DNA from: an uncultured Latescibacterota bacterium
GTDB lineage: Bacteria; Latescibacterota; UBA2968; UBA8231
Direction: 5' to 3'
DNA: 64,000 bases
Assembly: GCA_951813615.1 (NCBI GenBank)
Contig: OX638377.1
Span: 5,055,739 to 5,119,738 of the forward strand
The notes under the pieces are model-generated. The model worked only from the letters and a program-made list of their open reading frames with translations. It was not told the DNA's origin and made no database searches. Below are positions 15,596 to 37,476 of this stretch, one piece after another (the first letter of the stretch is position 1; every line of letters begins with the position of its first letter). A program made the position numbers and the translations under genes.

Positions 15596-16909
15596 GTGAA
15601 CCAACCTGAATCCATCGCTCCGGCCACGGGCAAACTCGGCGTCCTCATTCCCGGCATGGGCGCTGTGGCCACCACGGTTATCGCCGGCGTCGAAGCCATC
15701 AAAGCCGGCATTGGGCAGCCCATCGGCTCGCTGACCCAGATGGGCACCATCCGCTTGGGCAAGCGCACCGAAGGACGCTCGCCGCTCATCAAGGACTTCG
15801 TGCCTTTGGCCGACATCGACAGTTTGGTCTTCGGCGGCTGGGACGTCTTTCCAGAAGATGCCTATGACTCGGCTATCCACGCCGGCGTCTTGGACCAAAG
15901 ACTGCTCGACCAGATCGCGGATCCGCTCAAGGCCGTCAAGCCGATGCCCGCGGTTTTTGACCGCAACTACGTGCGCCGCCTCGAAGGCTCCAACGTCAAA
16001 AGCGCCAAGAGCAAGTGGGATGCCGTGCTGGAAGTGCGCGAAGACATCCAGCGCTTCAAGGCCGACAACGGCGTCGAACGGCTAGTGATGATCTGGTGCG
16101 GCAGCACCGAGATTTTCATGGAGCACCACGAAGTACACGACACCATCGAGGGACTCGAAAAAGCCATCCAGGAAAACCACCCGGCCATTCCCCCGAGCAT
16201 GATCTACGCGTACGCCGCGCTACAGGAAGGCGTGCCCTTTCTAAACGGCGCGCCGAATTTGACCGTGGATGTCCCGGCCATGGTCGAACTGGCGAAGCAA
16301 AAGGGCGTGCCCATCGGCGGCAAGGACTTCAAGACCGGCCAGACCCTGATGAAGACTCTGCTAGCCCCGGGTCTCAAGGCGCGGATGCTCGGCGTGCAGG
16401 GCTGGTTTTCGACCAACATCTTGGGCAACCGCGACGGCGAGGTGCTCGACGACCCCGATTCGTTCAAGACCAAGGAAGTCAGCAAGCTCGATGTGCTGGA
16501 GTTTATCTTGCAGCCTAGCCTCTATCCCGAGCTCTACGGCGATATTTACCACAAGGTGCGGATCAACTACTATCCGCCGCGCGGCGACGAAAAGGAGGGC
16601 TGGGACAATATCGACATCTTCGGCTGGATGGGCATGCCCATGCAGATCAAGGTCGATTTCCTCTGCCGCGATTCGATTCTCGCCGCACCGCTGGTTTTGG
16701 ACTTGGTGCTGTTTGCCGATTTGGCGCAGCGCGCGCAGATGGGGGGGATCCAAGAGTGGCTGTCGTTTTACTTCAAGAGCCCGATGACCGCGCCCGACCT
16801 CTATCCCGAGCACGACCTCTTCATCCAGCTAATGAAGCTCAAGAACACGCTGCGCTTCTTGCGGGGCGAAGATCTAATTACCCACTTGGGTCAGGAGTAC
16901 TACGACTAG
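15596..16909 (+). CDS. ino1: inositol-3-phosphate synthase
   Basis: 437 aa with bacterial/archaeal MIPS-type sequence (GVLIPGMGAVATTVIAG and a GKDFKTGQT region). AAAGGAG lies upstream of the GTG start. Its stop TAG shares the palindrome CTAG with the stop of the convergent regulator. Confidence 0.92.
   Translation: MNQPESIAPATGKLGVLIPGMGAVATTVIAGVEAIKAGIGQPIGSLTQMGTIRLGKRTEGRSPLIKDFVPLADIDSLVFGGWDVFPEDAYDSAIHAGVLDQRLLDQIADPLKAVKPMPAVFDRNYVRRLEGSNVKSAKSKWDAVLEVREDIQRFKADNGVERLVMIWCGSTEIFMEHHEVHDTIEGLEKAIQENHPAIPPSMIYAYAALQEGVPFLNGAPNLTVDVPAMVELAKQKGVPIGGKDFKTGQTLMKTLLAPGLKARMLGVQGWFSTNILGNRDGEVLDDPDSFKTKEVSKLDVLEFILQPSLYPELYGDIYHKVRINYYPPRGDEKEGWDNIDIFGWMGMPMQIKVDFLCRDSILAAPLVLDLVLFADLAQRAQMGGIQEWLSFYFKSPMTAPDLYPEHDLFIQLMKLKNTLRFLRGEDLITHLGQEYYD
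16880..16909 (+). repeat. att-like 30-mer, copy 1 (functional 3' end of ino1)
   Basis: ACCCACTTGGGTCAGGAGTACTACGACTAG recurs at 60055-60084 and 62679-62708. Confidence 0.85.
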
Positions 16910-19900
16910 ACGCCTTTAATACCCAACTTTCTCATTTTGCCGTACAGCGTCGAAGGCGGCACTCCCAGCAGAGCCGCCGCTCCTTGTGCGCCCTTGATCC
17001 GCCAGTTAGTGGCGTTGAGTACTTCGAGAATATAGCGGCGTTCAAATTCAGGGAGAGGCATTATTTCGCGGCCTTGAGAAACGGATAACGCCCTTGCTTT
17101 AAGGCCAACAGTGGGGTCTGTAATGTCAAAACCGCACTGCATGAGATCGGTCGTGCCGATTTGAGAACCATTGCAGGCTATGACTACCCGCTGCATGAAA
17201 TGCTCCAGTTCCCGCACATTCCCCGGCCAATCGTAGGTTTGCAGCATTTCCATAACCTCGGAACCCAAGGAGGCGGGTTCCTTGTCCAGGTAGGCTGCCA
17301 TGCGATTCTTGAAAAACTCGACTAGGGCCGGGATGTCCTCCTTGTGCTCGCGCAAGGGCGGGATGTACAGCGGAAAAAGCTGCAGGCGCGAATACAGTCC
17401 CTCGCGAAAAACACCAACCTGCACCATCTTCTGCAGGTCGCGACTAGTCGCGGCTACAATGCGCGTCTGCGCAGTTAGCGTCTGCTTGCCGCCAACTCGC
17501 TCAAACGTGCGCGCTTCCAATAAGCGCAGGATCTTGTCCTGCGTTTCCAGCGTCATCTCGCCGATTTCGTCCAAAAACAGGGTGCCGTCTTTGGCTAGTT
17601 CCACCTTGCCTACTTCGCTAGTAGAAGTCTTGTTTTCGCACCCAAAGAGTTCACTGTCGATCAACGCTTGGGATGAGGCCCCGCAGTTGACAGATATAAA
17701 AGGGCCGTTGCCATAGGCACTCAACGCGTGTAACACCCGTGCCACTGACTCCTTACCCACACCCGTTTCGCCTAGAATCAGTACGGTCAGATCGGTGGGT
17801 GCCACCTCCGTGAGTTTGGTTTGAAGCTGGCGCAAGCCCTTGGTCTGTCCAATCCATTGGTTACCCCCACAAAATGCGGCCTCCGGTTTTACCGCAAGCT
17901 GCACCTGCGCCGTCTCCGAGTAATTGAGATCCCGATCTATCGCCCGGACTTGAAAAGTGTAATCGCCCGGCGGCAGGTTTCGATAACAGGCTTGCATCTC
18001 TCGGGTCGCGGGCCCCCAGTCGAGGTCGTAGCCCTGCAAGCGATAGACATAGAGCATGTCGCGGGGATGGGTGGAAAAACTCAGGCCCTTGTACTCGAAA
18101 ACCACCGGCTGTCCCACCGTGGAGGAACAGACTTCCGCTAGGTTCTCATAGACCTGATCGGTGGTAACTCGGATGAGACGAATCAGGGGTGGCGTTTGCT
18201 GCGGCCGGTAGCGTATGATGGAACCCACGACCGTGCCGAACCAGAAGGTGCCGTCGCGATCTTCGAGGATGCGGCAAACGGGTCCTATATGAGGAGACTT
18301 GATCGTCTGGAAAAGCCGACCATCGTACTGAGCCACCCCTCGGTCGGTGCCGATCCAGAGGTGACCGCGCGTATCCTCCAACAAACAGCGGATGCGGTTA
18401 CTCGGCAGCCCGTCTTCGGTCGCGAAGGTGCGGAAGGTGCTGCCATCAAAGCAACTGATACCACCCCGCGTAGCGACCCATAGGTTACCCTGGCGGTCTA
18501 CTAGTAGGTCATTGACATGGTTGTCTATCAGCCCGTCTTCGACTCCATACCATGTAAGTCCGTCTTCAGGATGCCAGCGGGCGAAGCCGGTGCCGCTCGC
18601 TAGGCCATCGCTACTGGTCAAATGGAAATAGATTTCATTGTTGCGCGTGGCAATCACCGTGCCAATGCGGCTGTACGGTGTTTTTTTGCTATCCTCCGTA
18701 AAAATGGTTTGGCACTGCTCGCCTTGTTGGTACACGATCTGTAATGGACTGGCCAGAAGCTTCTTTCGTTCGCGTATGGTGTAGTGTTCCCAACAGCCAA
18801 AAATGAATCGTCCTTGCCGATCTTGCGTGATGCTGCTGATCCCCCCTGCGTCTACATCGACCGCTATGTTCTCCTTTTTGAGCGTCTGCCCGTCATAGCG
18901 GAATAGACCTCTTCCACCGCCGAACCATAGGTGCCCCTCAAGGTCTTCGTAGATGGAAAAACAGTTGCCGATACTAAGACTTTTCCCATCGGATACGAAT
19001 GTAAAGTGCTCGCCATCAAAGCGGGCGACGCTCTTGTTATAAACGGGGAGACGGGGCGATACATACCCGATCCATATATCACCTTGCCGGTCTTGCGCGA
19101 TCTGTGAGACTTCATTCGGGTTCTTAGGATAGTTCGCACGAAAGTCAAAAACGCTGATGCTATGCGCATCGTATAGCCCAACGCCGTTCCAAGTGGCGAA
19201 CCAAAACTGATCCTCGCGATCGTGGAAAACGGCTTTGACGGAGGAATGGGGTAGGCCATCGGCCGCGGTAAATCGGCTGAACCCGTCATCGTCTTGGTAG
19301 AACACGCCATCCAACGTGCAAAACCACATCCGGCCTTCCCGGTCGCACATAATCCAGCGCAGCCAACAATTCAAACCGACCTTAACATCCTCGAAGGTGT
19401 TATTGGCGTAGAAATGGAATCGGCCTTTCCGAATCCAACCGATCCACACCTTGCCGGTAGGGTCCTGGCCCACCGCATAACCGTGCTTGTCTCGGGGAAA
19501 ACCCTCATCCGCTTCGTAGCGGTGGAATGATCTGCCATCGTAGCGGACGAGGTTTTCAAAGCCAAACCACAAGTGGCCTTGTGGGTCTTGGACAATGCCC
19601 CGACAAAAGGAGGAGAGCTCCTTCGCAGAAAAAAGCTCCTGGTACTGCTGAAGGTAGAGCGGAGTCAAGTCGTGGAAAGCCGTGCCGTCGTAATACCCCA
19701 AGGTCTCAGTGCCACCGCACCAGATACGACCCTGACGATCCTCGTAGATGAACTGCACAGCCCGGCCGGCAATGCCGTCGTCTTCCAAGGGATGGAAGTC
19801 GGCTCCGTCGTACCAGCAGACCCCCTTTGATGTACCAAACCACAACCGCTCCTGACGATCCGGCTGAATAAAGGAAACTTGGTCGTCAATAAGACCGTCC

Positions 19901-20076
19901 TGTGTAGTGAAATTCTGGAACGCATCGCCGTCAAAGCGGCTGGCTCCGTTATCCCATGTGGCGAACCAGATATACCCTGCGCTATCCTCGGCGATGTGTT
20001 CAATGCGCAGCGATGGCAGGCCATGATCTATGTCATAGGTTTTCCAAGTACCTATGCGGCTCAGTGACTTGATCAT
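16906..20076 (-). CDS. cytoplasmic beta-propeller (Reg_prop/Y_Y_Y-type) sensor fused to an AAA+ sigma-54-interaction-type ATPase and a Fis-type HTH
   Basis: 1056 aa with no signal peptide or TM helix. About 700 aa consist of repeated W/F-G-T..G propeller blades. These are followed by a YYY-like domain (YRLQGYDLDW), Walker A GETGVGKE, Walker B TLFLDEIG, R-finger ERVGG, WPGNVRELE and a C-terminal HTH (AAALLGVPPSTLYGKMRKLGI). The GAFTGA loop is absent. Confidence 0.9.
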   Translation of the reverse strand: MIKSLSRIGTWKTYDIDHGLPSLRIEHIAEDSAGYIWFATWDNGASRFDGDAFQNFTTQDGLIDDQVSFIQPDRQERLWFGTSKGVCWYDGADFHPLEDDGIAGRAVQFIYEDRQGRIWCGGTETLGYYDGTAFHDLTPLYLQQYQELFSAKELSSFCRGIVQDPQGHLWFGFENLVRYDGRSFHRYEADEGFPRDKHGYAVGQDPTGKVWIGWIRKGRFHFYANNTFEDVKVGLNCWLRWIMCDREGRMWFCTLDGVFYQDDDGFSRFTAADGLPHSSVKAVFHDREDQFWFATWNGVGLYDAHSISVFDFRANYPKNPNEVSQIAQDRQGDIWIGYVSPRLPVYNKSVARFDGEHFTFVSDGKSLSIGNCFSIYEDLEGHLWFGGGRGLFRYDGQTLKKENIAVDVDAGGISSITQDRQGRFIFGCWEHYTIRERKKLLASPLQIVYQQGEQCQTIFTEDSKKTPYSRIGTVIATRNNEIYFHLTSSDGLASGTGFARWHPEDGLTWYGVEDGLIDNHVNDLLVDRQGNLWVATRGGISCFDGSTFRTFATEDGLPSNRIRCLLEDTRGHLWIGTDRGVAQYDGRLFQTIKSPHIGPVCRILEDRDGTFWFGTVVGSIIRYRPQQTPPLIRLIRVTTDQVYENLAEVCSSTVGQPVVFEYKGLSFSTHPRDMLYVYRLQGYDLDWGPATREMQACYRNLPPGDYTFQVRAIDRDLNYSETAQVQLAVKPEAAFCGGNQWIGQTKGLRQLQTKLTEVAPTDLTVLILGETGVGKESVARVLHALSAYGNGPFISVNCGASSQALIDSELFGCENKTSTSEVGKVELAKDGTLFLDEIGEMTLETQDKILRLLEARTFERVGGKQTLTAQTRIVAATSRDLQKMVQVGVFREGLYSRLQLFPLYIPPLREHKEDIPALVEFFKNRMAAYLDKEPASLGSEVMEMLQTYDWPGNVRELEHFMQRVVIACNGSQIGTTDLMQCGFDITDPTVGLKARALSVSQGREIMPLPEFERRYILEVLNATNWRIKGAQGAAALLGVPPSTLYGKMRKLGIKGV

Positions 20077-20262
20077 AAAAAATGTCCTACTCCCGAAAAC
20101 AGCTTTGAAGAAGGCGGTGTTCAGTTAGCGAAAAAAGCTTGACGCCAAACTTGAGACTTGAAAGAATGTAAGAGGTGATGTGGTAAATGTACCTCCTAAA
20201 AAGTATAGCGACACATTGGGTGATTACACAAATCATCTGTCATTAAAAGTCATTTTCATAAA

Positions 20263-20329
20263 AGACCATATATAGTCTAAAATTCATAAAAGACCATATA
20301 TAGTCTTTTATGTCCGACTAAAAATACCC
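20263..20329 (+). promoter_or_regulatory. two 28-bp-phased palindromic boxes (AGACCATATATAGTCT) plus the conserved 15-mer CGACTAAAAATACCC
   Basis: The box cores start at 20266 and 20294. The 22-mer CATAAAAGACCATATATAGTCT is repeated exactly (20257 and 20285). The 15-mer at 20315-20329 is identical to 37286-37300. Confidence 0.6.
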
Positions 20330-20362
20330 TGACGTAAGGCTTCAGAATTCCAACCCAATAAA

Positions 20363-20426
20363 TCATCAATAAATCACCAATAAAGACCTACAAGTCACCC
20401 AAATATCACCGACAAATACTTATTAT
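20363..20426 (+). promoter_or_regulatory. TCACC direct-repeat module (4 boxes) plus a -10-like TATTAT
   Basis: Boxes start at 20363 (TCATC), 20374, 20395 and 20406, giving spacings of 11, 21 and 11 bp. TATTAT lies 10 nt after the last box. The module is homologous to those at 22682 and 34404. Confidence 0.55.
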
Positions 20427-20657
20427 AGATTATAGAACGCGATTTATTACCGGCGGTGTGGGATACCAATATTCTTCCGCGACCATAAGCCTTCCGAGCC
20501 CGTGTAGTAGGATATCCATGTGCCGCTCGGTTGGCGACTACTCGGGCGAGAAACAACGTGCCGAGCCGCCTTGAGGTATGCGTTGTCGAGCCGCGTTGAG
20601 GGTCCGCGTTGGACCTTACGAGGCTATCAACCAACAATAAGGAGCTTATAGAAAAGC

Positions 20658-21383
20658 ATGATTTGTCGTCTTACCATCCTGCTGCTGGGCTTCGCCGCGC
20701 TGTTCGTTCTTTCCGGCCCGGCGCAAGCCCAGACCACGATCTGGTCGGCCACGCTGACGCCGAAGTCTTTCTCGAATTCGGTGGGCTGCGACAACGCCCA
20801 ACTTCAACAGTCTAGGAAATGCAGCAACAGCAACAGGCTGAGCGAGGACGATTTCACCGATGACGGTACGAGTTACCGGGTCAGAAAAATCGTTGGCAAG
20901 AATAATGGAGACCTGAAATTCCAGCTCACTGCGCAGGCCACTACCGCCACCCAGACACTGACACTGATGATTGGCGGCGCGTCATACGCTCTGGCGGACG
21001 CCGCTCACACGACCCCCAGCAACAGGAGTACTTGGAAGTGGAGTAACGCCAACCTGAGTTGGAGTGCCGACACCGACGTCGCCGTGTCGCTCGTTGCGAT
21101 CGACGCCACCGCCACCGGCCAGCCGAGGATTTTCGGCGCGCCACAGGTGGGCAAGACGCTGACCGCGCTGATCGACGACATCGAAGACGGCGCGGGACTA
21201 CCGGCTGGGCTATCAGCTAACCCTGTTGAAGGATGCCGCCGTACGCTTCGAACTAGGAGTCGATGCCACGCGCCGCGAGGCCCTGCGCCAAGGCGAGGAG
21301 GACCATCGCGTTCTGGGCCGCATCACGACGCGCTGGTAAACGCCACGGATCCTAGGGTGGAAGGTAACGGACGTATCCTATGA
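20658..21383 (+). pseudogene. deletion remnant of an autotransporter-type giant adhesin gene (signal peptide plus first modules fused out of frame to the last ~47 barrel codons)
   Basis: The N-terminus is MICRLTILLLGFAALFVLSGPAQA|QTT. The motif GQPRIFGAPQVGKTLTALIDDIEDGAG matches the PTISGAPQVGELLTADTSGIEDTDG modules of the giant genes. From about 21196 a different frame reads DYRLGYQL...DHRVLGRITTRW*, which resembles the barrel end ARLGYRL...DHFVGMRAGMRW*. The current ORF may still yield a 241-aa secreted product. Confidence 0.55.
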
Positions 21384-31651: not shown

Positions 31652-34036
31652 CTATCCTTTTGGCATTCGGTAGCCGACGCGAGGCTCGGCAAAGATGTAC
31701 GTGGGGTTACTCGCGTCGTCGCCCAGCTTGCGGCGGAGTCTCCGGACGAGGGTGCGGAGCACCCGCACATCGCCGGAGCTAGTCAGGCCCCATACCCTGC
31801 GCAGCAACTGGGCGTGGGTCAACACCCGTCCGGCGTTGACCGACAGCTCAAAGAGCAGTTCGTACTCCGCGGCGGTCAGTTGCACCGGCTGGCCAGCTAT
31901 CGTCACGTAGCGCTTGGCATAGTCAATGGTCAGGCCGTCCAGCACGTAGGGTTCCGACGGCTCGGCCTGATATGGATTCGTCTGCCGGCGCAGGGCCGCT
32001 CGGACCCTCGCTACTAACTCCGTTGGCGAGAAGGGCTTGACGATGTAATCGGTGGCCCCCTGCTCAAAGGCCCGTGCGATGACTTGGTCCTTGCCGTACC
32101 CAGAGACGAAGATGATCGGCACATCGGCAGTACGGCGGATGGACTTCATCAGGTCGATTCCGTCGGAGTCGGGCAGCACTAGGTCGAGCAAGACCAAGTG
32201 GGGCCTTTTCTCCTCTGTGAGAAGAAGCGCATCTTGGGGGTCCGGGGTCACTATCGACGTGAAGCCCCCCTCCGAAAGCGCGTCCCGGATGTACCTCAGC
32301 GCTTGGGGGTCGTCGTCCACCACCAAAATGCAGGCATCCTCGCTCTTTTCCTGCTCCGGGTGGGTGGCGAGCTGAGGAGACTGGGTTGTTGCACTCGTCC
32401 CGGCCTCTTCGACCACCGGGATGGTGAAGGTAAACCGCGCGCCGAGGCCCAGCCCGCCGCTCTCAGCCCAGATGCGGCCACCGTGCGCCTCTACGATCCC
32501 CTTGCAGATGGCAAGGCCCAGACCCGAACCGCCCGTTTCGCGTTTCCGGTCCTCGCCGTCGATCTGGGAAAACTTCCTAAACAGGTGCGGCAACCGATCG
32601 GCGGGTATCCCTCTGCCCGCGTCGGTGACGGAGATCGCCACGTAGAGCTCCTCCCGCACGACGGCCACCTCAATGGCGGACGACTCCAGCGAGTGCCTTG
32701 CCGCGTTGGCAAGGAGGTTATCCAAGACTTGGACGATGCGTTGTCGGTCTGCCATGACCAAGGGCAGGTCTGGTGCGAGGTCGAGATTGAGAGCGTTACT
32801 CTCGCTGCCACTTAGAAAGGTGTTCCTGGCTCGGTCCACCAAGCTGGCAACCTCCGCTGGTTCGGGATGGACCGGCAAGGTGCCCGTCTCGATGCGCGCC
32901 ACGTCCAGCAGATCGCCGATCAGCCCGCGCATGTGGTCGACCTGCTGGACGATAATCTGGTGAAACTGGCGCGACTCGGCGGGGTCCAAGTCGGCTGAGG
33001 CCTCCAGCAGAGTGGTTGCAGAGCCTTTAATAGAGGTCAGCGGGACGCGCAACTCGTGGCTCACCATTCCGAGGAACTCGGCTCGCAGTCGCTCCAGTTC
33101 CTCCAGCGGTGTCATGTCCTGTAGCGTGACGATGACCGACTCGACCTCGCCGTCCTCCGAATGGATGGGCGTGGCGTTTACCAGCGTGGTCACCGACCGG
33201 CCGTCAGGGGCCTGAATGACGATCTCCTCGGTGCGGACGACCTCGCTGCTACTCAACACCTGCGCGAGGGGAAAATCGCCCAGAGCTATCTCGCTCCCAT
33301 CCGCACGTCGGATGGTAACCATATTGATGAGCTGCTCTATAGAGTCTCCTGGCATCCGCAGGTCTTTTATAATCCTTCGGGACTCCCGGTTGAGGGATAT
33401 CGGTACGCCCGTCTGGGCGTCGAAGACTGCCACGCCTACAGGAGAGGTGTTGATTAAGGTTTCTAGGTCGGCTCTGGCCCGTCGCTCGTCGCGGTACTTG
33501 CGGGCGTTGGAGATGACCAGCGCCGCTTGGGATGCAAACATGACCAAGAGCTCCTCGTCTTCGCGGGTGAACTCTTGCCCGAGACCCCTCTTTCCCAAGT
33601 AAATGTTGCCCGTGTTCTCGCCTTGGTAGTGGATCGGGGCCCCTAGGAAGGCGCTTACGCTCAGCTCAGCGGGGAGGGCAAACTCGGGAAGGCCCTGCGA
33701 TCTACTGTAGCTGGTAAAGTCCCGGACTCTCAGCGGTCCCGAAATGTTGCTTAGGCGTTCTAATAACTTATCCCCTTCGGGAACCTCCCATAACCGTTGG
33801 CTCTCCTCGACCGTCAGGCCAGAGGCCAAGAAATCTTCCACCTGCCTTGAATCGTCCAAGGTGATGATCACGCCGTACCGGGCGTCGGTCAACGACCGGG
33901 CGCTGTCCAAGATCCCCTGCAATACCGTGTCGAGGTCGAGGCTTTCGTTGATGCGGAGGCTGGCCTCGCTCAGCTTGGAAAGGCGGTTTTGTAGTGTCTC
34001 TATCTTCTGTTGGTCACGCTCGTCAGCGTTCTTCAA
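31652..34036 (-). CDS. single-polypeptide two-component system: GAF-PAS-HisKA-HATPase-REC-OmpR/PhoB-type winged helix
   Basis: 794 aa with no TM helix. The H-box is SHELRVPLTSIKG. The G-boxes are DAGRGIP and GGSGLGLAI. The receiver has ILVVDDDP...LVLLDLVLPD...KPF. The wHTH region has LTAAEYELLFEL...VRRLRRKL...VGYRM. GGAGGAG lies 5 nt upstream of the TTG start. Confidence 0.9.
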   Translation of the reverse strand: MKNADERDQQKIETLQNRLSKLSEASLRINESLDLDTVLQGILDSARSLTDARYGVIITLDDSRQVEDFLASGLTVEESQRLWEVPEGDKLLERLSNISGPLRVRDFTSYSRSQGLPEFALPAELSVSAFLGAPIHYQGENTGNIYLGKRGLGQEFTREDEELLVMFASQAALVISNARKYRDERRARADLETLINTSPVGVAVFDAQTGVPISLNRESRRIIKDLRMPGDSIEQLINMVTIRRADGSEIALGDFPLAQVLSSSEVVRTEEIVIQAPDGRSVTTLVNATPIHSEDGEVESVIVTLQDMTPLEELERLRAEFLGMVSHELRVPLTSIKGSATTLLEASADLDPAESRQFHQIIVQQVDHMRGLIGDLLDVARIETGTLPVHPEPAEVASLVDRARNTFLSGSESNALNLDLAPDLPLVMADRQRIVQVLDNLLANAARHSLESSAIEVAVVREELYVAISVTDAGRGIPADRLPHLFRKFSQIDGEDRKRETGGSGLGLAICKGIVEAHGGRIWAESGGLGLGARFTFTIPVVEEAGTSATTQSPQLATHPEQEKSEDACILVVDDDPQALRYIRDALSEGGFTSIVTPDPQDALLLTEEKRPHLVLLDLVLPDSDGIDLMKSIRRTADVPIIFVSGYGKDQVIARAFEQGATDYIVKPFSPTELVARVRAALRRQTNPYQAEPSEPYVLDGLTIDYAKRYVTIAGQPVQLTAAEYELLFELSVNAGRVLTHAQLLRRVWGLTSSGDVRVLRTLVRRLRRKLGDDASNPTYIFAEPRVGYRMPKG

Positions 34037-34190
34037 TTCATCTCCTCCATCGGGATGCGGAATGTGTGGTTATAGGATCATTGAGGTTTTTAAACCAGAA
34101 AAAGCTACCTGTTTGGTGGACATACAACGTCGTCTGTCATACGACTGAATCGAGCAGATTGGAGAATTTTAGAACAGTCTTTATTAGGGG

Positions 34191-34236
34191 CCATATATGG
34201 TCTTTTTTAATTAAAGGGCTATATATGGTCTTTTTT
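34191..34236 (+). promoter_or_regulatory. two 28-bp-phased palindromic boxes (CCATATATGGTCTTTTTT / CTATATATGGTCTTTTTT)
   Basis: The cores start at 34191 and 34219. They lie in the AT-rich region between the divergent HK-RR gene and the 34685 gene. Confidence 0.6.
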
Positions 34237-34403
34237 CAGCTATCATTTTATCGATTTCTATTTGTTAATTAATTTTTTATTCATCCTAAACAATAATTAA
34301 AAGATTGTGAGGCGCAAATGCCAATGAGCTAACCATAGGCGACAGACGAGTGATACCAAGCCGAGGCAACGCGGAGGACTTCTTGGGAAAGGGACCCATA
34401 AAA

Positions 34404-34467
34404 TCACCAAGAAATCACCGAAACAGACCTGCATGTCACCCACAAGTCACCAAGAAATTTTTAATAT
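34404..34467 (+). promoter_or_regulatory. TCACC direct-repeat module (4 boxes) plus a -10-like TAATAT
   Basis: Boxes start at 34404, 34415, 34436 and 34447, giving spacings of 11, 21 and 11 bp. TAATAT lies 10 nt after the last box. Confidence 0.55.
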
Positions 34468-34684
34468 AGTATTGTTGTGTTGTGGGGTGCTAAGAATGTC
34501 TCCAAAGATCATAAGCCTTCCGAGTCCAGCAGGATAACCGTGTGACGCTCGGTTGGCGGCCACTTTGTCGGGATGAGGGCGAGAAAGGGAGGAGTGGGCA
34601 CGGGAACGGATCACCGAATCAGGATCGGAATGCTGCTGCTCTCAAAAGGAAAGAAAAGCGAGAGGTAGAGCATACAGGAATAAA

Positions 34685-37055: not shown

Positions 37056-37181
37056 TAGCACTCTATCTTGGGGTGTATCGAAAACTGTGACCCAAGACCT
37101 ACGCCTTCAAGCCGTCCGACAATTCTGAGTTCCCCCTTTTCCTCCTTCAGATTACAGCTAGACAATCTTTCTTCAAAAAGA

Positions 37182-37300
37182 CCATATATGGCCCTTTTTA
37201 TAATTTATACCATATATGGTCTTTTTGTTATTTTATATCATATATGGTCTTTTGATTTATTTTTTGTTTTATATGGTCTTTTACTCGACTAAAAATACCC
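37182..37300 (+). promoter_or_regulatory. four 28-bp-phased palindromic boxes (CCATATATGGTCTTTT) plus the conserved 15-mer CGACTAAAAATACCC
   Basis: The cores start at 37182, 37210, 37238 and 37267. The 15-mer is at 37286-37300. The array lies about 180-300 nt upstream of the giant-gene ATG. Confidence 0.65.
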
Positions 37301-37328: not shown

Positions 37329-37357
37329 TTGACAATTTTTTATTCCTTAAATAAATT
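37329..37357 (+). promoter_or_regulatory. candidate sigma-70-type promoter TTGACA-N17-TAAATT for the 7291-aa gene
   Basis: It has a perfect -35 hexamer at 37329-37334 and a 17-nt spacer. The -10 at 37352-37357 matches 4 of 6 positions. This would give a leader of about 113 nt. Confidence 0.3.
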
Positions 37358-37476
37358 TTTGATTTTATGTGATTATGGTGCGGCTTCTTTGTCGGGATGA
37401 GGGATGAGGTGTTGATTGGCCGAACTCTATTTCCAAAACGCAGCGAGTGTTATCGCATCTTTCCGAAAGGCGATCT

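Follow-up and report, generated by a model that had tools for sequence, protein, structure and literature searches.

A GAFTGA-less propeller-AAA+ regulator with predicted palindrome-array operators in an uncultured Latescibacterota bacterium

How would a regulator built around the ATPase of a sigma-54 activator operate without the loop that touches sigma-54? This question is raised by a gene in a stretch of 64,000 nucleotides (the window) from an uncultured Latescibacterota bacterium (assembly GCA_951813615.1, contig OX638377.1, positions 5,055,739 to 5,119,738 of the forward strand). The gene lies in an island that encodes giant surface proteins, and its product combines a beta-propeller sensor, an AAA+ core and a helix-turn-helix (HTH) domain (Table 1). 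In enhancer-binding proteins (EBPs), GAFTGA forms the tip of loop L1 and contacts region I of sigma-54. Two defining features of a sigma-54 activator are missing from this regulator: a GAFTGA-bearing L1 loop and a -24/-12 promoter for it to act on. Comparison with its paralogues and orthologues suggests that it is probably an atypical EBP that binds palindrome arrays with a 28-bp period and, independently of sigma-54, controls island promoters of the sigma-70 type.

Loop L1 and the domains of the regulator

An earlier note on this DNA had claimed that GAFTGA is missing and that the loop is about four residues short at positions 17611-17634; the translation and the alignments to FlrA and FleQ agree with both statements. 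Residues 809-840 read ELFGCENKTSTSEVGKVELAKDGTLFLDEIGE, positions 17611-17634 correspond to N815-V822 (NKTSTSEV), and the L1 loop, CENKTSTSEVGK, is four residues short and devoid of GAFTGA. In phmmer alignments to EBPs of solved structure, the four-residue gap falls exactly at the GAFTGA of FlrA and FleQ, and the alignment to Brucella NtrX, which likewise lacks GAFTGA, is gapless across L1. No GAFTGA-like loop was recovered by proper alignment.

The remainder of the ATPase is well preserved, with a PF00158 (Sigma54_activat) score of 174.5 bits against a Pfam cut-off of 20.2. Walker A (GETGVGKE), Walker B (LFLDEIG), sensor II (WPGNVRELE) and both arginine fingers are intact, and sensor I reads ATS in place of ATN. 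The inventory of motifs in the earlier note stands for Walker A, Walker B and sensor II and has to be amended for the arginine finger: ERVGG, to which that role had been given, lies in what we take, from the PspF and NtrC1 structures, to be the L2/pre-sensor-I region, with the fingers in FREGLYSRL, which is retained. Homologues are 62-97% identical to the regulator, and identities of 70-97% across many genomes point to purifying selection on the whole 1056-aa protein, every domain of which appears free of decay.

The sensor half scores 161.8 bits for Reg_prop and 45.8 bits for Y_Y_Y, and its propeller module matches the PDB sequences 3v9f (E 2.7e-42), 4a2l (2e-37) and 3ott. A full-length AlphaFold model, built from a 21-sequence alignment, contains about 14 four-stranded blades; with a mean predicted local distance difference test score (pLDDT) of 63, values below 50 for Y_Y_Y and L1, and a predicted TM-score of 0.40, it serves for fold class only and is too weak for a ligand pocket or loop geometry. 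The top Foldseek matches of the modelled sensor are the sensor domains of BT4663, BT3049 and BT4673, with low TM-scores from this low-confidence model. No hydrophobic segment, transmembrane helix or signal peptide was detected in the regulator (highest 19-residue Kyte-Doolittle mean, 0.97), and Pfam returned no histidine kinase (HK), receiver (REC) or AraC domain. Because no hydrophobic segment is present and only some 15 residues separate the end of Y_Y_Y (about residue 727) from the start of AAA+ (residue 742), the whole regulator is predicted to be cytoplasmic; the same Pfam and hydropathy results bear out the soluble Reg_prop/Y_Y_Y input, free of transmembrane helix, signal peptide and receiver, that had been described from the sequence.

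Judged by its sequence, the sensor corresponds to the periplasmic module of Bacteroides hybrid two-component systems (HTCS), here in cytoplasmic form. The HTCS glycan sensors BT4663 (4a2l/4a2m), BT3049 (3v9f) and BT4673 (3ott) share the Reg_prop double propeller and Y_Y_Y. However, they are periplasmic, flanked by transmembrane segments and coupled to an HK-REC-AraC output, whereas the module of the regulator is predicted to be cytoplasmic and is fused directly to AAA+.

Table 1. Coordinates of the regulator gene, its domains and the associated DNA elements in the window
Feature	Coordinates	Strand	Basis or location
Gene for the 1056-aa propeller-AAA+-HTH regulator (P0001)	16906..20076	-	Open reading frame (ORF) and translation, domains, homologues
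Soluble Reg_prop double beta-propeller and Y_Y_Y sensor module, residues 1-730	17887..20076	-	Pfam, PDB matches
Sigma54_activat AAA+ core, residues 742-903	17368..17853	-	Pfam, 174.5 bits
L1 remnant region ELFG...LFLDEIG, residues 809-840	17557..17652	-	Translation, alignments
AAA+ lid with sensor II (WPGNVRELE), residues 909-979	17140..17352	-	Pfam AAA_lid_14, 74.4 bits; conservation
Fis-type HTH_8 DNA-binding domain, residues 1008-1051, recognition helix PPSTLYGKMRKLGIK	16924..17055	-	Pfam HTH_8, 35.7 bits; alignment
Array 1, two AAGACCATATATAGTCT palindromes 28 bp apart	20262..20307	.	Divergent intergenic region, regulator / 20658 gene
CGACTAAAAATACCC box after array 1	20315..20329	+	Kept after arrays of degenerate-clade loci
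Array 2, two palindromes 28 bp apart	34187..34232	.	Between the GAF-PAS-HK-REC-winged HTH (wHTH) gene and the 34918 gene
Array 3, three palindromes with 28-bp period, plus half-site at about 37271-37282	37178..37251	.	In front of the gene for the 7301-aa adhesin
CGACTAAAAATACCC box after array 3	37286..37300	+	Sequence
Sigma-70-like promoter TTGACA-N17-TAAATT, downstream of array 3	37329..37357	+	Positional equivalence

Paralogues, phylogeny and the sigma-54 promoter contrast

The source genome is a single contig of 6.27 Mb (59% G+C) and encodes an intact rpoN (TIGR02395, 435.8 bits; 491-aa open frame), so loss of sigma-54 from the genome is not the explanation. Among its 22 Sigma54_activat proteins, 20 carry G[AS][FY]T[GNSD]A in L1, the only exceptions being the window regulator and one paralogue (genome 5979692-5982976, minus strand; 75% identical; loop RENEISTSEIGK). 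Six of the 22 are propeller-EBPs of about 1050 aa, which fall into two subfamilies: subfamily A comprises three copies, all with GAFT[GS]A, and subfamily B comprises the two loop-less copies and one GAFTSA copy (genome 6013851-6017066, minus strand; loop HEKGAFTSAVSHRLGR). This GAFTSA paralogue is a canonical counterpart of the regulator, with 59% identity over the full length, the same domain order and a near-identical recognition helix, but it keeps GAFTSA, the ATN form of sensor I, and YYRL.

Candidate sigma-54 promoters were evaluated by scoring GG-N10-GC sites against TGGCACG-N4-TTGCW (maximum 19.9), with 126 sites over both strands of the genome reaching at least 18.5. The best site in the intergenic DNA of the island scores 16.2, in keeping with the earlier report that no convincing -24/-12 promoter is found there. 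A -24/-12-like sequence within the regulator ORF, TGGCACGGTGATTGCC (18649-18664, minus strand), scores 19.1; since the same codons are kept in orthologues and in GAFT paralogues, it is most likely a coding by-product. Strong TGGCAC-N5-TTGC-like sites are present in the intergenic DNA next to all four GAFT-bearing propeller-EBP paralogues of the genome and next to neither of the two loop-less ones. For the GAFTSA paralogue, TGGCACACTTTTTGCA (genome 6013523-6013538) stands 24 bp before the gene that follows it.

This contrast extends to related genomes. After 77 related loci were fetched, 58 intact family genes, including those of the source genome, could be classified. A site scoring at least 18.5 was present within 600 bp at 38 of the 45 GAFT-type loci and at none of the 13 degenerate-loop loci, and control flanks 2.1-2.7 kb away had none in 56 cases. 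The difference between GAFT and degenerate loci gives a Fisher p of 2.5e-8, although shared ancestry keeps the counts from being independent: all loop-degenerate proteins fall into a single clade (SH-aLRT support 100, stem length 0.30), so the contrast represents one evolutionary transition rather than 13. By sequence comparison, this is a single derived clade within a large propeller-EBP family of sponge-associated Latescibacterota and Gemmatimonadota; the relatives are metagenome-assembled genomes labelled Candidatus Latescibacterota or Gemmatimonadota, derived at least partly from sponge metagenomes.

Within the degenerate clade, Phe is absent from L1 in all 49 sequences inspected, and the loops take diverse forms. 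Some are of full length but mutated (xENETATSAVSRK), others are one residue short (HEKGA-TSADSRR, RENERAKTAISK), four residues short (RENETATSEVGK, as well as the loop of the window regulator) or five residues short (HASAVSHKVGK). Because the loops vary in length and sequence and all are without Phe, constraint appears to have been relaxed on L1 alone. The ATPase motifs are maintained: Walker A Lys in 100%, Walker B D and E in 95% and 97%, the two arginine fingers of FREGLYSRL in 97% and 100%, and the sensor II Arg of WPGNVRELE in 87% of the members. AAA+ identity within the clade (0.81) is comparable to that among GAFT proteins (0.78). Two changes are specific to the clade, namely sensor I ATN to ATS (93%) and YYRL to Y[LS]RL.

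Several further observations were made on this family. Most degenerate-clade members (the loop-less paralogue, P0011, P0015, P0025, P0036, P0020 and P0033) have the first AAA+ helix duplicated in tandem, as a 26-residue repeat just before Walker A (VGPS..LRQFQTKL.EVAP.DLTVL followed by IGQS..), which is absent from the window regulator. A separate monophyletic clade (L040, L046, L048, L053, L093, L100 and also L045) has GAFA[SN]A, with Thr replaced by Ala; six of its seven loci are without a strong -24/-12 site within 600 bp, and these six belong to the seven GAFT-class loci that have no site. This clade may represent a second, independent move away from sigma-54. In the RENERAKTA subgroup (L034, L035, L084 and L091), a conserved CGGCACGGAACATGC[CT] with a score of 17.2-18.4 is oriented towards the regulator gene, some 240 bp ahead of its start. 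Either a weak element of the -24/-12 kind or a side effect of the coding sequence next door could account for it.

With regard to subfamily A, five identical TGGCACGAAGATCGCC sequences near its members initially resembled sigma-54 sites and were dropped, being coding sequence of PD40 repeats (SPDGTKIAY). The genuine sigma-54 promoters of this subfamily are at genome positions 1887218, 1889550, 4669529 and 4660785. They follow the propeller-EBP genes and lie 45-130 bp upstream of genes whose products are secreted proteins with PD40 repeats and a common signal peptide, MNYRSLLIVCLATLGLAVAGWG, and the whole expanded propeller-EBP family appears to be dedicated to secreted or surface proteins.

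Candidate operators and competing mechanisms

The window contains seven matches to the palindrome motif, against zero expected by chance, and genome-wide the motif is confined to the window arrays and one lone site. The lone site is a perfect palindrome, AGACGATATATCGTCT, at genome position 5192299, far from any family gene. Loci of both loop classes have tandem GAC(C/G)-N6-(C/G)GTC palindromes adjoining the gene, which were found by a tandem-repeat search, a strict 16-mer palindrome detector having missed most sites. In the divergent region of the loop-less paralogue, AAGGACCGCATACGGTCC occurs twice, 28 bp apart. The GAFTSA paralogue shares tandem GACC-N6-GGTC palindromes with the regulator and differs in their setting: each of two TGGCAC-N5-TTGC promoters is preceded, at a distance of about 120-130 bp, by two copies of GGACCGTATTAGGTCC 20 bp apart, so that two units are formed. 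Among loci with detectable tandem palindromes, spacing follows the loop class: 10 of 12 GAFT loci have 18-20 bp, and seven of eight degenerate loci have 25-28 bp. At GAFT loci the palindromes lie 100-190 bp upstream of the -24/-12 element.

The HTH domain and the half-sites vary together. The residue that follows STLY is N where the half-site is GACC (7/7) and S or T where it is GACG, GGCG or AACG (6/6), and this relationship holds in both the GAFT and the degenerate clades. Of the evidence at hand, such covariation speaks most strongly for the palindromes as the sites to which the adjacent regulator binds, and the CCATATATGG palindromes of the window are accordingly considered candidate operators of the window regulator.

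Downstream of the arrays, the degenerate loci share a GACTAAAAATRCCC box, followed at four of them by TTGACAT-N17-(T/G)ATA..GTT. The sigma-70-like promoter after array 3 occupies a position equivalent to that of the conserved TTGACAT-N17-TATAGT in the loop-less paralogue and its orthologues. Assignment to sigma-70 is based on this positional conservation across loci together with the lack of -24/-12 elements. Arrays 1 and 2 are followed at the -35 position by AAATCACC (TCACC) repeats phased at 11 bp and then by TATAGA or TATAGT. The TCACC-type direct repeats, at 20357-20412 and 34400-34460, are likely to be sites of the soluble GAF-PAS-HK-REC-wHTH (OmpR-type) fusion protein encoded at 31652-34036 (minus strand); if so, the island promoters combine two regulators.

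Taken together, these data support the suggestion of the earlier note that the protein acts without sigma-54, and make it probable that the regulator is an atypical EBP acting as follows. Its HTH domain would bind the GACCATATATGGTC palindromes of arrays 1 to 3, and the arrays would act in an enhancer-like manner from about 85 to 280 bp upstream of predicted start sites. The targets would be promoters of the giant secreted or adhesin genes, presumably read with the housekeeping sigma factor and independently of sigma-54; the neighbouring HK-REC-wHTH gene would probably be regulated too, and the propellers would sense a cytoplasmic ligand. The distance of the arrays and the conserved ATPase favour action at a distance of the type described for Rhodobacter capsulatus NtrC. 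ATP binding or oligomerisation would probably still be needed. The balance tips slightly towards activation rather than repression.

Precedents for an EBP of this kind exist. GAFTGA-less EBPs that act at sigma-70 promoters include R. capsulatus NtrC, Caulobacter NtrC, VpsR, TyrR, HupR, PhhR, HsfA and NtrX (bioRxiv 10.1101/2023.06.06.543975; PMC6158489), and ATP binding, but not hydrolysis, has been reported to be essential for R. capsulatus NtrC (bioRxiv 10.1101/2023.06.06.543975). Like the regulator, R. capsulatus and Caulobacter NtrC have an EBP-type AAA+ domain from which L1 and GAFTGA are deleted; they bind tandem upstream sites and act on sigma-70 promoters, the tandem arrays of the regulator being predicted sites. 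Unlike it, they are alphaproteobacterial response regulators that have a receiver domain and have lost more of L1, whereas the regulator has a propeller/Y_Y_Y sensor of about 730 aa, no receiver and a different phylum. E. coli TyrR, P. putida PhhR, R. capsulatus HupR, M. xanthus HsfA and V. cholerae VpsR also belong to the Sigma54_activat family, have no functional GAFTGA and work with sigma-70 polymerase (PMC6158489). Their input domains (ACT/PAS, REC) differ from that of the regulator, the TyrR model of NCBIfam scores its core at 178.9 bits, below the cut-off of 576, and Walker B is degenerate in VpsR but intact here. The best full-length solved match of the C-terminal half is Brucella abortus NtrX (5m7n/5m7o/5m7p; E 6e-59), which has the same shortened L1 length and AAA+ plus HTH_8 but differs in its receiver domain and in being a reported repressor (PMC6158489). 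Since the loops themselves are unrelated (EMDGGERK versus ENKTSTSE), loss of L1 in NtrX and in the regulator appears to be convergent. The regulator fits the class of atypical EBPs and differs from the known members in its sensor, its phylum and the presence of canonical sister paralogues in the same genomes. A search of the available literature found no paper on Reg_prop-EBP fusions or on this propeller-EBP family.

A bolder proposal, which we advance only tentatively, is that this highly expanded family has been caught in the act of switching sigma factors, one of its clades having moved from sigma-54 to sigma-70 promoters: the enhancer-like tandem array would have been kept but re-spaced from about 20 to about 28 bp, and the protein, with its ATPase intact and its ring-forming AAA+ body retained, would be an ATP-dependent, distance-acting activator of the housekeeping polymerase that gates giant adhesin genes of sponge symbionts via a cytoplasmic ligand.

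A number of observations speak against sigma-70-dependent action of the regulator through the arrays. Scans for sigma-70 consensus hexamers did not rise above shuffled expectation in this AT-rich DNA, and the TCACC repeats that replace the -35 element at arrays 1 and 2 are probably the sites of a different regulator. In four close orthologues (L034, L035, L084 and L091), the 500-600 bp ahead of the gene are free of palindromes. At L029 and L038, which represent one orthologous site, TGGTATAAATATTGCA (score 18.1, of the TGGTAT-N5-TTGCA type) occupies the place of the sigma-70-like promoter in other degenerate loci. A protein with some remodelling activity left would likewise be expected to keep all its ATPase motifs, and the sensor I N-to-S and YYRL to Y[LS]RL changes may also count against this reading. 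Finally, a single transition underlies the promoter association, to which the GAFA[SN]A clade would add a second if included.

Among the alternatives, the regulator might be an NtrX-like repressor or anti-activator on the arrays, possibly acting by looping, or no more than an autoregulator, with the OmpR-type fusion as the real activator. The shortened loop makes this attractive, being identical in length to that of Brucella NtrX, as do the second regulator with its own phased sites at the same promoters and the position of array 1 between the regulator and its divergent neighbour, a typical autoregulatory layout. We nevertheless judge it unlikely, as about 85-280 bp separate the arrays from the predicted -10 elements downstream, with no overlap, their geometry is inherited from the bona fide upstream activating sequences (UAS) of GAFT paralogues, and simple occupancy would not demand fully conserved ATPase motifs.

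Continued action via sigma-54, through a non-canonical L1 that contacts region I or through mixed rings in which a GAFT paralogue provides the contact and the regulator provides sensing and DNA targeting, seems decidedly improbable. The genome does offer rpoN and many GAFT paralogues with near-identical HTH domains and AAA+ interfaces, and the intact ATPase motifs and the TGGTAT-N5-TTGCA sequence at L029 and L038 would fit such a role. However, sites of at least 18.5 are lacking at the 13 degenerate loci and in the intergenic DNA of the island, Phe is lost in all degenerate members, and the loops of the clade drift freely in length and sequence where an alternative functional contact would be conserved; moreover, the shift in spacing from about 20 to about 28 bp went together with promoter type. 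That the palindromes are sites of another protein and the regulator an orphan or decaying paralogue with no role there is scarcely credible, since, despite the close orthologues that have no adjacent palindromes, the arrays are almost confined to the flanks of family members, in both clades the half-sites change together with the recognition helix, and the whole regulator appears to be under purifying selection, with no domain decaying.

If the regulator is indeed a sigma-54-independent EBP, part of its value lies in the comparison that its relatives provide. The GAFTGA-less, sigma-70-acting EBPs known to date are few, mostly receiver-domain proteins, and have been studied singly. Here, dozens of close paralogues (59-65% identical) share genomes: most have GAFT(G/S)A, UAS spaced by 20 bp and textbook -24/-12 promoters, and one clade has lost the loop and has a 28-bp array and sigma-70-like promoters. 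The family would thus offer a matched natural comparison both for the rewiring of an enhancer-dependent activator to the housekeeping polymerase and for the remaining use of a conserved ATPase. A likely regulator and operator can also be assigned to giant LRR (leucine-rich repeat), Calx-beta and cadherin-like surface proteins of uncultured sponge symbionts. The double propeller of HTCS type appears able to serve as a cytoplasmic sensor, and, if the sigma switch is real, a propeller module that elsewhere is known only from periplasmic glycan sensing would read a cytoplasmic ligand.

Island genes and further features

The island encodes LRR/Calx-beta/fn3 surface proteins of 2924 aa and 7301 aa, the latter from the adhesin gene at 37447-59352, together with a protein resembling those with a C-terminal domain for type IX secretion (T9SS-CTD). 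A conserved target operon was sought by synteny and not obtained: the neighbourhoods of orthologues differ, so that no regulon can be defined by gene order, and an adjacent large secreted protein is the only recurring theme. Sequencing runs that might show transcription were also sought, and yielded only DNA runs, runs of unknown type and two RNA runs with zero coverage.

The ORF at 20658-21383, across the divergent region from the regulator, begins with a clean signal peptide, MICRLTILLLGFAALFVLSGPAQA, and has an Arg/Pro-rich end that looks out of frame; it resembles what is left of an adhesin gene after a frameshift or truncation. Rfam gave no family match in the window, a conserved 5' leader of the island transcripts included. 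This leader, CATAAGCCTTCCGAG...GCTCGGTTGGCG...TCGGG.GAGGGCGAGAAA, contains a CCGAGC/GCTCGG stem and occurs at 20484-20560, 34510-34590 and 37378-37412.

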